From NCBI RefSeq assembly GCF_054482525.1, contig NZ_CM137006.1: a stretch of DNA of 64,000 bases; one strand, given 5' to 3'. The position numbers and the translations under genes are program-made. Shown one piece after another: positions 51,253-53,866 of this stretch. The notes beneath the pieces are model-generated. The model searched no databases. It was not told where the DNA came from and worked only from the letters and a program-made list of their open reading frames with translations. Position 1 is the first letter of the stretch. Each line of letters starts with the position of its first letter.

Positions 51253-52029
51253 ATGCTGATTCTTATTTCACCTGCGAAAACGCTCGATTACCAAAGCCCG
51301 TTGCCCACCACGCGCTATACGCTGCCGGAGCTGTTAGACAATTCCCAGCAGTTGATCCATGAAGCGCGGAAACTGACGCCTCCGCAGATTAGCACGCTGA
51401 TGCGCATCAGCGACAAACTGGCGGGTATCAACGCCGCTCGCTTTCATGACTGGCAGCCAGATTTCACGCCGGAGAATGCCCGCCAGGCGATTCTGGCGTT
51501 TAAAGGTGATGTCTACACCGGCTTGCAGGCCGAAACCTTCAGCGAAGACGATTTCGATTTTGCCCAACAGCATTTGCGAATGCTTTCCGGCTTGTATGGC
51601 GTACTGCGCCCGCTCGATTTAATGCAGCCTTATCGTCTGGAAATGGGGATCCGTCTTGAGAATGCCCGAGGGAAAGATCTGTATCAATTCTGGGGAGATA
51701 TCATCACCAACAAGCTGAACGAGGCGCTCGCAGCACAAGGCGATAATGTGGTGATAAATCTGGCGTCAGATGAGTATTTTAAATCGGTGAAGCCGAAGAA
51801 ATTGAATGCCGAGATTATCAAGCCGGTGTTCCTCGATGAGAAGAACGGCAAATTTAAGATCATCAGCTTCTACGCTAAGAAAGCACGCGGTCTGATGAGT
51901 CGTTTCATTATTGAAAATCGGCTGACCAAACCAGAGCAACTGACTGGTTTTAATAGCGAAGGTTACTTCTTTGATGAAGCTTCCTCCAGCAACGGCGAAC
52001 TGGTGTTTAAACGCTACGAGCAGCGTTAA
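51253..52029 (+). CDS. yaaA: peroxide stress resistance protein (UPF0246 family)
   Basis: 258-aa [22 protein letters not shown]. Confidence 0.9.
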
Positions 52030-52068
52030 GTTTGCAGTCAATGCCGGATGGCAATCCGGCATTGATAT

Positions 52069-52365
52069 TTAGCGATGATGTTTGTCAGGCCCCGGACGAT
52101 GATCGCCACGATGATCATTGTGCTTGTTATGGCGCGGCGATGGCGGCGGTCCATATGGGTGCCAGCGATTGCCTCGCCATTCATAATGTTGTTTCCACCA
52201 GCCGTGGTCGCGCCAGTGACCGCCATCCCAGTAATAGCCACGATTATCACGATCGCCTATCTGTAATTTTACTGACGGGACTAACGTAATTTCCGCAGCC
52301 TGCGCTGCCATGGGAGCGACCAGAACCAGGGAAAGTGCGAGTACGATAGATTGCATCTTTTTCAC
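52069..52365 (-). CDS. yaaX: secreted Trp/His/Arg-rich repetitive small protein
   Basis: 98-aa ORF with signal peptide [23 protein letters not shown] and a W/H/R/G-rich C-terminal half. Confidence 0.8.
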
Positions 52366-52522
52366 AGGTTACTCCTTTTATCATTGCCCGTTATGGGTCG
52401 ATATCCGGAGATTACGCGATGAGAACGGCAGTTGTTATTCTCCGCAATCCTAATCTCTAAGTTACCGCATTTATTGAGAATTTCTCCTTTTTCCCTGTCG
52501 TTTTTCTCCATATTTTCTTCAT

Positions 52523-52557
52523 TAAAAAAGCCGGGCTGTATAAAAGCAAACCCGGCC
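52523..52557 (-). terminator. rho-independent terminator of the thr operon
   Basis: Minus-strand hairpin gccgggtttgcttttatacagcccggc followed by ttttttaatg, 23 bp after the thrC stop. Confidence 0.75.
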
Positions 52558-52579
52558 TGATTGAGATAATGAATAGATG

Positions 52580-53866
52580 TTACTGATGATTCATCATCAA
52601 TTTACGCAACGCAGCAAAATCGGCGGGCAGATTATGCGAAAGCAAGGGTAAATCAGCACGTTCTGCCAGCTCTTTTGGCAGATCCAACGTTTCACCGAGA
52701 ATCGCTTCCACGCTCTCTTTAAATTTCGCCGGATGCGCGGTGCCGAGGAACAAGCCATATTCGCCTGGATGCAACTGGTCACGCAGTGCACGATAAGCTA
52801 CGGCAGCGTGCGGCTCCGAGGTATAGCCCAGTTCTTTTAACTCACGCATTGTCTGTTGCGTGGTTTCATCATCTACGGCTGCATAACCCAGCTCTTTCAG
52901 TTGCCAAATTTTGCGGCGGAACAACTCTTCCACACGCGGCCAGTTGTTCGGTTGACTCACGTCCATCGCGTTGGATAACGTCGCCTGAGTCGCTTTGGGT
53001 GACCACTGCCCGTCGTGCAGGAAACGCGGCACGGTATCGTTCACGTTAGTGGCAGCGATAAAACGCTTCACCGGCAGGCCAAGAGATTTCGCCAGCAGGC
53101 CCGCCGTCAAATCGCCGAAGTTACCGCTCGGCACCGAGACAACCAGCTGGTTGCGCGCTTCCTGCGGCAACTGCGCCACGGCTTCAAAGTAGTAGCAAAT
53201 CTGCGCCAGCAAACGGCTGATGTTAATGGAGTTAGCAGAGTTTAACCCCAGCGCCACTTTCAGTTCTTCATCATCAAACGCCTGCTTCACCAGCGCCTGA
53301 CAGGCATCGAAATCGCCGTCGATGGCAACAGTTTCAATATTGCCGCCCAATGTACAGAACAGTTTTTCTTGCAGTGGACTGATTTTGCCTCGTGGATAGA
53401 GGATAACCACTTTCACATTCGGCAAACCGTAGAAAGCATGAGCCACTGCCGCTCCGGTATCACCGGAGGTCGCGGTCAGAATGGTCACTGGCTTATCGCC
53501 CGCAATATGGGTCAGCATTTGTGCCATAAAGCGACCGCCGAAATCTTTAAATGCCAGCGTTGGCCCGTGGAACAACTCCAGACAACCGACATCGCTTTCA
53601 ACATTGGCGACCGGAGCCGGGAAGGCAAACGCCGCGCGTACGCGCTCTTCCAGGATTTCCTGCGGGATTTCATCACCAATAAACGCCGAGAGGATCTTCG
53701 CACTGCGGGTGACAAAATCCAGCTTCAGCATCTCATCAATTTCAGTCAGGCTGAATTCCGGCAGGTCGTGCGGGAAAAACAGCCCCTGATTTTTGCCCAA
53801 CCCCTGGGTTACGGCTTGCGCAAAGCTGACCTGCTCATTGTGATCTTTCAGATTGTAGAGTTTCAT
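52580..53866 (-). CDS. thrC: threonine synthase
   Basis: 428-aa ORF MKLYNLKDHNEQVSFAQAVTQGLGKNQGLFFP. Confidence 0.97.
   Translation of the reverse strand: MKLYNLKDHNEQVSFAQAVTQGLGKNQGLFFPHDLPEFSLTEIDEMLKLDFVTRSAKILSAFIGDEIPQEILEERVRAAFAFPAPVANVESDVGCLELFHGPTLAFKDFGGRFMAQMLTHIAGDKPVTILTATSGDTGAAVAHAFYGLPNVKVVILYPRGKISPLQEKLFCTLGGNIETVAIDGDFDACQALVKQAFDDEELKVALGLNSANSINISRLLAQICYYFEAVAQLPQEARNQLVVSVPSGNFGDLTAGLLAKSLGLPVKRFIAATNVNDTVPRFLHDGQWSPKATQATLSNAMDVSQPNNWPRVEELFRRKIWQLKELGYAAVDDETTQQTMRELKELGYTSEPHAAVAYRALRDQLHPGEYGLFLGTAHPAKFKESVEAILGETLDLPKELAERADLPLLSHNLPADFAALRKLMMNHQ

Follow-up and report, generated by a model that had tools for sequence, protein, structure and literature searches.

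The yaaX gene of Escherichia coli: a DUF2502 gene with a predicted two-module, envelope-stress-induced periplasmic product

The 64,000-nucleotide stretch of DNA analysed here (the window) contains, on its minus strand, a 98-codon gene which, judged by its sequence and position, is the ordinary chromosomal yaaX, orthologue of b0005, in a phylogroup-B2-type allele. The explanation that best accounts for the observations below, and which we hold with somewhat better than even confidence, is that yaaX is a monocistronic DUF2502 gene whose product is an exported, two-module, stress-induced periplasmic protein. The gene, its family, its signal peptide and its odd composition are already on record in public annotation. 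The initial annotation of this stretch had described the gene as functionally uncharacterised, which stands for the molecular function and falls for the regulation, already published (PMC2731931, PMC3599342, PMC5105897). On the E. coli K-12 map yaaX is gene number five, still without a molecular function, and with its paralog ypeC it belongs to that part of the Rcs envelope-stress output which is understood least. Beta-lactams, colicin M and Lol inhibitors switch this output on. Knowledge of what the conserved Trp-rich domain binds would fill a gap in the picture of enterobacterial handling of envelope damage.

The yaaX locus and its transcription unit

The open reading frame (52069..52365, minus strand) consists of 98 codons and a stop and begins with GTG, 6 nt downstream of a Shine-Dalgarno GGAG (52372..52375, minus strand); the sequence AAGGAGT around the latter is invariant in five genera. 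The name yaaX given in the initial annotation is borne out, as the 701 bases around the gene have 100% DNA identity with E. coli strain 1190, in which a DUF2502 gene is annotated between thrC and yaaA. The peptide quoted at that time matches residues 43-98 exactly. Of 5426 complete E. coli genomes, 5424 matched the region, and the annotation everywhere reads 'DUF2502 domain-containing protein'. Since the protein accession, WP_000738734.1, is identical to that of CFT073, the window carries the allele of phylogroup-B2-type strains. The gene is flanked by thrC (52580-53866), on the same minus strand, and by yaaA (51253-52029) on the plus strand. The order thrC/yaaX/yaaA is the same in K-12, strain 1190, CFT073, Enterobacter, Citrobacter, Salmonella and Kosakonia, and the longer synteny thrABC-yaaX-yaaA-yaaJ-talB-mog is kept in four other genera (Enterobacter, Citrobacter, a Salmonella and Kosakonia).

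One could still read yaaX as non-functional, that is, as a reading frame that arose by chance between thrC and yaaA, or as a pseudogene in decay. Versions of the gene that are frameshifted after the poly-Pro codons do exist in public assemblies, and S. Typhimurium LT2, which is not known to have an annotated copy, would point the same way. Against this stand the near-universal presence among complete E. coli genomes, the synteny conserved across several genera and the strong purifying selection on the core, where pN of 0.06-0.13 against a saturated pS of 0.8-0.93 across genera indicates a real, constrained protein. Transcription and translation are documented as well (PMC3599342, PMC13410324). 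Conservation and expression data have thus already refuted this reading, and we assign it practically no chance. In the same region, a 49-aa open reading frame lying across the upstream region (52362-52511, minus strand) was rejected, as its ATG is lost and stop codons are present in other genera. Two antisense frames within yaaX (52032-52289 and 52075-52266, plus strand) were set aside as by-products. An Rfam search of 51900-52700 gave no match.

The region upstream of the start codon (52366..52520, minus strand), which would hold the promoter and the 5' leader, is strongly conserved across genera. Over these 155 bp, five genera agree in 94 of 158 alignment columns, and the sequences are 77-79% identical to that of E. 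coli, which far exceeds the conservation of the yaaX synonymous sites, which are saturated; such strong conservation is expected from tight regulation. The invariant stretches are CGTAATCTCC and TTAGAGATTAGGATTGCGGAGAATAAC, and the TAATCT at 52409-52414, within the former, is a possible candidate for the -10 element. A scan for the sigma-70 consensus called no promoter on the strand of yaaX; the sigma-70/terminator scan also missed the thr terminator, owing to its long loop. The promoters of yaaX and ypeC have the motifs TTA(A)GAG(A)TTAKGG and CGTAAT in common. In the predicted leader fold, an invariant CUCC at 52407-52410 is able to pair with the Shine-Dalgarno GGAG; the resulting hairpin is no better than that of shuffled sequence (z = -0.78), and transcription may start downstream of the CUCC.

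The intrinsic terminator of the thr operon (52524..52558, minus strand; a GC hairpin followed by U6, -18 kcal/mol, z = -3.8) lies immediately before this region and sets yaaX apart as a transcription unit of its own. On the other side, a perfect 12-bp inverted repeat, TCAATGCCGGAT/ATCCGGCATTGA (52038..52065, -19.1 kcal/mol, z = -4.75), sits between the stop codons of the convergent yaaX and yaaA genes and looks like a terminator from both sides. It is probably a terminator common to the two genes, with no good U-run on the yaaX side. The thr terminator and this 3' repeat would bracket yaaX as a single-gene unit.

In published transcriptomes, induction of both yaaX and ypeC accompanies the Rcs (and RpoS) envelope-stress response. 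The yaaX gene belongs to the RcsB regulon list (PMC2731931), is induced by colicin M with a log2 value of 4.1 (PMC3599342) and rises 8-12x under a LolCDE inhibitor; ypeC, which ranks with the genes that this inhibitor induces most, responds far more strongly, by 42-60x (PMC5105897). The label 'RpoS stress induced' comes from the latter study (PMC5105897). In an rcsB-disrupted O157 strain ypeC is 24x lower (PMC5343319), and the promoter of a Serratia homolog was picked among three Rcs reporter promoters (PMC8470065). We searched for the RcsB homodimer box with the consensus TN(G/A)GAN4TC(T/C)NA (PMC7913699) and found none with two or fewer mismatches in the 165 bp upstream of E. coli yaaX, which suggests that Rcs control may be indirect or need a partner. 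The upstream regions of orthologues have a conserved RcsB-box-like site with two mismatches, GCAGAAATTCCCAA. The window as a whole holds three perfect boxes, against 2.8 expected by chance, all away from the yaaX promoter. The perfect match TTAGACAATTCCCA at 51334-51347 (plus strand), inside yaaA, is probably meaningless.

Signal peptide, Trp/Tyr-rich core and His-rich tail

The initial annotation had proposed a small protein with a signal peptide, and the predictions agree with it. Codons 1-23 (52297..52365, minus strand) have the hydropathy and charge layout of a signal peptide: MKK is followed by a 14-residue hydrophobic stretch and then by P-M-A-A-Q-A|A-E, with predicted signal peptidase I cleavage at AQA|AE. 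The -3/-1 rule holds across the family, as position -3 is A, V or T in 157 of 159 relatives and position -1 is A or G, again in 157 of 159. The Sec/SPase-I signal thus appears classic and family-wide, and cleavage may be expected from its layout. YaaX has zero Cys, hence no lipobox, and is therefore not a lipoprotein. Outer-membrane beta-barrel proteins typically end in a C-terminal aromatic residue, which YaaX lacks. Taken together, the Sec/SPase-I signal, the missing lipobox and the missing aromatic end strongly support a soluble periplasmic location of the predicted 75-aa mature protein. The start of the mature protein, EITLV, recalls TonB-box strands; it is not conserved in distant relatives. 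Two things had been named on which this reading depended, expression and a cleavable signal peptide. The signal looks cleavable by prediction, and expression is documented by the published induction and by a proline-related ribosome pause within yaaX, from which it follows that the gene is translated (PMC13410324).

The mature part was said to be dominated by W, H, R, G and P, and these five residues indeed make up 56% of it (G 12%, P 11%). Relative to the long open reading frames of the window, it is enriched in Trp (8.0% vs 1.3%, binomial P = 4.5e-4), in His (13.3% vs 2.3%, P = 8.8e-6) and in Arg (12.0% vs 5.9%, P = 0.03). Its GRAVY value is -1.91, and its calculated net charge is +4.7 at pH 7 and +14 at pH 5. 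The description of the protein as repetitive, on the other hand, did not hold: TRF and a repeat search of the DNA found no tandem repeat and no notable direct-repeat family, the sole yield being the 3' hairpin. At the protein level there is a degenerate echo between YYWDGGHW (residues 44-51) and YEWRGNRW (residues 61-68), of the pattern Y-x-W-x-G-x-x-W, and this W-x4-W echo is the sole repeat-like feature.

Alignment, AlphaFold2 models and selection delimit a core of about 47 residues, residues 24-70 (52156..52296, minus strand). A domain search for a DUF assignment, proposed with the initial annotation, returned Pfam DUF2502 (PF10697) over residues 25-72, with 52.9 bits against a cut-off of 27 (E = 4.5e-14); NCBIfam gave sub-threshold matches only, on the signal peptide. 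The family motif hxhxhP[GSA]hxhxhGDRDxxGxYWDGxxWRDxxWW is present at residues 26-57, after the signal peptide. Across 26 enterobacterial sequences the core has 22 invariant positions, and G37, D40, G43 and W46 are invariant in an alignment of 100 sequences. Within 44 core residues there are six Trp and three Tyr, and every Trp is invariant or nearly so. Two independent AlphaFold2 runs, with alignments of 26 and of 100 sequences, agreed with each other and put the core at pLDDT 87-94 and residues ~34-70 at 84-94. Besides short bridges, the model shows a helix over residues 54-60, a hairpin over 61-70 and a less certain N-terminal hairpin. The six Trp and three Tyr probably form the hydrophobic interior of the core. 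A search of the PDB by sequence profile found no match at E <= 10, and Foldseek against the PDB found a single meaningless match (E = 6.4).

The remainder of the protein is a tail of residues 71-98, which with the stop codon corresponds to 52069..52155 (minus strand). It consists of His, Arg, Asp, Pro and Gly, contains a PPP stalling motif and had pLDDT < 50 in both AlphaFold2 runs, that is, predicted disorder. The tails of 178 relatives contain on average H 17%, R 13%, D 12%, G 11% and P 9%, with no positional conservation, and commonly end in ...RPGPDxKHH. The His content is 23% in the tail of the window allele and 33% in that of the K-12 allele. His positions are poorly conserved: the mature window allele has 10 His, with one HH and no HxH, and the K-12 allele has three HH and two HxH. 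A two-module architecture, with a folded Trp/Tyr-rich core and a disordered tail, is therefore strongly supported by modelling. It follows that the view of the protein as low-complexity fails for the W-rich half, a conserved domain with pLDDT of ~90. The tail evolves fast, is predicted to be disordered and is conserved in composition. The statement that the protein is conserved likewise applies to the core, with its strong purifying selection, and not to the sequence of the tail, where composition alone is kept.

At the poly-Pro codons CCGCCGCCATCGCCG (52130-52160), many public yaaX versions shift frame just past the GPPP codons, and the frameshifted homologs P0003, P0005, P0021 and P0022 continue reading through the 3' hairpin. 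Such versions in assemblies could be either sequencing errors or real inactivating variants.

The DUF2502 family is small and taxonomically narrow. A word-indexed search found 157 relatives, all from Enterobacteriaceae and all DUF2502, and a profile run exhaustively against 1.84 billion cluster representatives matched 106 clusters only, with a range that includes Pantoea, Rouxiella, Chimaeribacter and a few Betaproteobacteria (Jeongeupia, Deefgea, Azonexus). All relatives found carry PF10697. Distant members, including betaproteobacterial ones (P0138, P0144, P0219 and others), have two tandem GDRDxxGxYWDGxxWRDxxWW units. A CPPGQAKKGxC C-terminus occurs in 10 of 219 DUF2502 proteins, all distant ones; enterobacterial proteins are without this motif. 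The paralog YpeC (P0127/P0129) resembles YaaX in having a signal peptide, a DUF2502 core and a basic H/R/G/D tail, although its tail is richer in Arg, Gly and Tyr. Its locus also differs, as ypeC adjoins mntH/nupC, in Pantoea and Rouxiella too, mntH being the gene of a Mn transporter. Unlike yaaX, ypeC is a direct MarA/SoxS target (PMC5684230). In eight homolog loci, yaaX and ypeC are solitary, convergent with their neighbours and have no operon partner, so that the neighbourhood is uninformative on function.

Proposed function and alternatives

Several known systems resemble YaaX in part. Spy, CpxP and ZraP are, like YaaX, small, exported, basic and envelope-stress-induced. They are unrelated to it in sequence (no Pfam match at E <= 1), and the single NCBIfam Spy match, confined to the signal peptide, reached 12.4 bits where the cut-off is 174. 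The folds differ as well: all-helical cradles in Spy and CpxP, and in the YaaX model a small mixed domain with a disordered tail. RcnB and YohN are also small periplasmic proteins and are linked to Ni/Co/Cu homeostasis, and many members of that group carry low-complexity stretches rich in H, D and R, similar to the YaaX tail. At E <= 1, neither YaaX nor any of 10 distant relatives matched Pfam RcnB; DUF2502 was the only family reported for them. The conserved core motifs of RcnB and YaaX are unrelated, and the likeness is compositional only.

As a mechanism we tentatively suggest that YaaX could be a stress-induced periplasmic binder or protectant, a proposal we consider less likely than not. 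The folded core would provide specific docking, and the tail would act as a polycation titratable by protons and metals. The tail might tether the protein to anionic envelope material such as LPS or phospholipid head groups and glycans; alternatively, it might chelate divalent metals upon envelope damage. The latter function could also be the whole of it. Metal binding, which the initial annotation had read from the composition, is plausible on compositional grounds for the tail alone, and YaaX would then be a periplasmic metal binder or buffer whose His/Asp tail chelates Zn, Ni, Cu or Co entering a damaged envelope, much as His-rich segments do in other periplasmic metal proteins. The His content of the tail in both E. 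coli alleles and the H and D averages of the 178 relatives fit this, as does the adjacency of ypeC to mntH in E. coli-like, Pantoea and Rouxiella genomes. In silver-adapted cusS mutants grown in LB, yaaX is among 23 common differentially expressed genes, a list that also includes cusCFBA and zraP, the gene of the metal-linked ZraP (PMC10920338). However, no known metal-binding family was matched at E <= 1, the ypeC-mntH adjacency is convergent and not operonic, and the tail has just as much Arg/Lys, residues that repel cations. With its single HH, no HxH and poorly conserved His positions, the Arg/Lys-rich tail of the window allele speaks against strong cation chelation. Moreover, regulation is reported to be by Rcs and RpoS, and in the case of ypeC by MarA/SoxS, and not by metal sensors (PMC2731931, PMC5684230). 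We consider metal buffering as the main function unlikely, with a real though minor chance of being correct.

The remaining alternatives place the function in either the core or the composition as a whole. The aromatic core might stack on sugars of peptidoglycan, colanic acid, periplasmic glucan or the LPS core and so mark or protect a damaged wall. The density of Trp and Tyr in the core, with Trp invariant or nearly so, and the co-regulation of yaaX with colanic-acid genes agree with this idea; lysozyme inhibitors are a further part of the Rcs regulon. The gene is induced by agents directed against peptidoglycan or the outer membrane (PMC3599342, PMC5105897). On the other hand, in a disulfide-free domain of ~45 residues the aromatics would more probably be buried than form an exposed binding face, and there is no similarity to known carbohydrate-binding folds, so that we regard glycan binding as improbable. 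A protein of this composition might instead be a hydrophilin-like, non-specific shield under conditions of water deficit, cold or surface growth that activate Rcs/RpoS. Hydrophilins are defined by Gly > 6% and a hydrophilicity index > 1, and the Gly content and GRAVY of mature YaaX fall within these operational limits, which amount to a compositional label only. The 'RpoS stress induced' label (PMC5105897) and the rise of a DUF2502 gene by log2 5.4 following a 4-week stay in soil at 4 degrees C (PMC10667640) agree with such a role. Yet over half of mature YaaX is a conserved, confidently folded domain under strong purifying selection, and a non-specific shield would not need so precisely conserved a folded core. 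This leaves the shield slightly more improbable still than glycan binding. We therefore keep the two-module, stress-induced periplasmic protein as our preferred reading, with core docking and a titratable tail as its tentative mechanism.

Allelic variation of the tail

The window allele and K-12 YaaX (b0005, WP_000738719.1) have 91% identity overall, with 100% over residues 1-69. Codons 1-69 have just two synonymous DNA differences (dS 0.046, dN 0, the core included), and the promoter region has a single difference, at window position 52416. In contrast, the last 29 codons of the K-12 gene differ from the window allele by ~10 replacements and two 2-codon indels, both in frame. For the tail we obtained dS ~0.54 and dN ~0.18, which are rough values, with few sites and a low-complexity alignment; the surrounding 3.5 kb diverges from K-12 by 2.1%. 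The window has PPPSP against PPPPP in K-12, and the K-12 protein ends in ...KAPHDHHGGHGPGKHHR. Behind the yaaX stop, K-12 has a 112-bp REP/BIME element that is missing from the window. The K-12 tail type is linked to this insertion, whose place is right after the hairpin, at window position 52050/52051.

By their tails, complete genomes fall into two sharply separate groups: 1387 have an identity of 95% or more to the window allele and 3998 one of 60-80%, with only 5 intermediates. The window type, which is that of CFT073, thus represents ~26% of complete E. coli genomes and the K-12 type ~74%. The dimorphism spans window positions 52050-52157, that is, yaaX codons 70-98 and the 3' hairpin. 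In other species of the genus, E. albertii has the K-12 tail type, E. marmotae has a window-type end (...HRPGPDxHHR) and E. fergusonii is a mosaic. The dimorphism may reflect either an old recombination patch or a long-kept polymorphism. Within thrC, a patch of ~100 bp at 53041-53130 has 85-88% identity to K-12, compared with the background divergence of 2.1%, and looks like a second small recombination patch.
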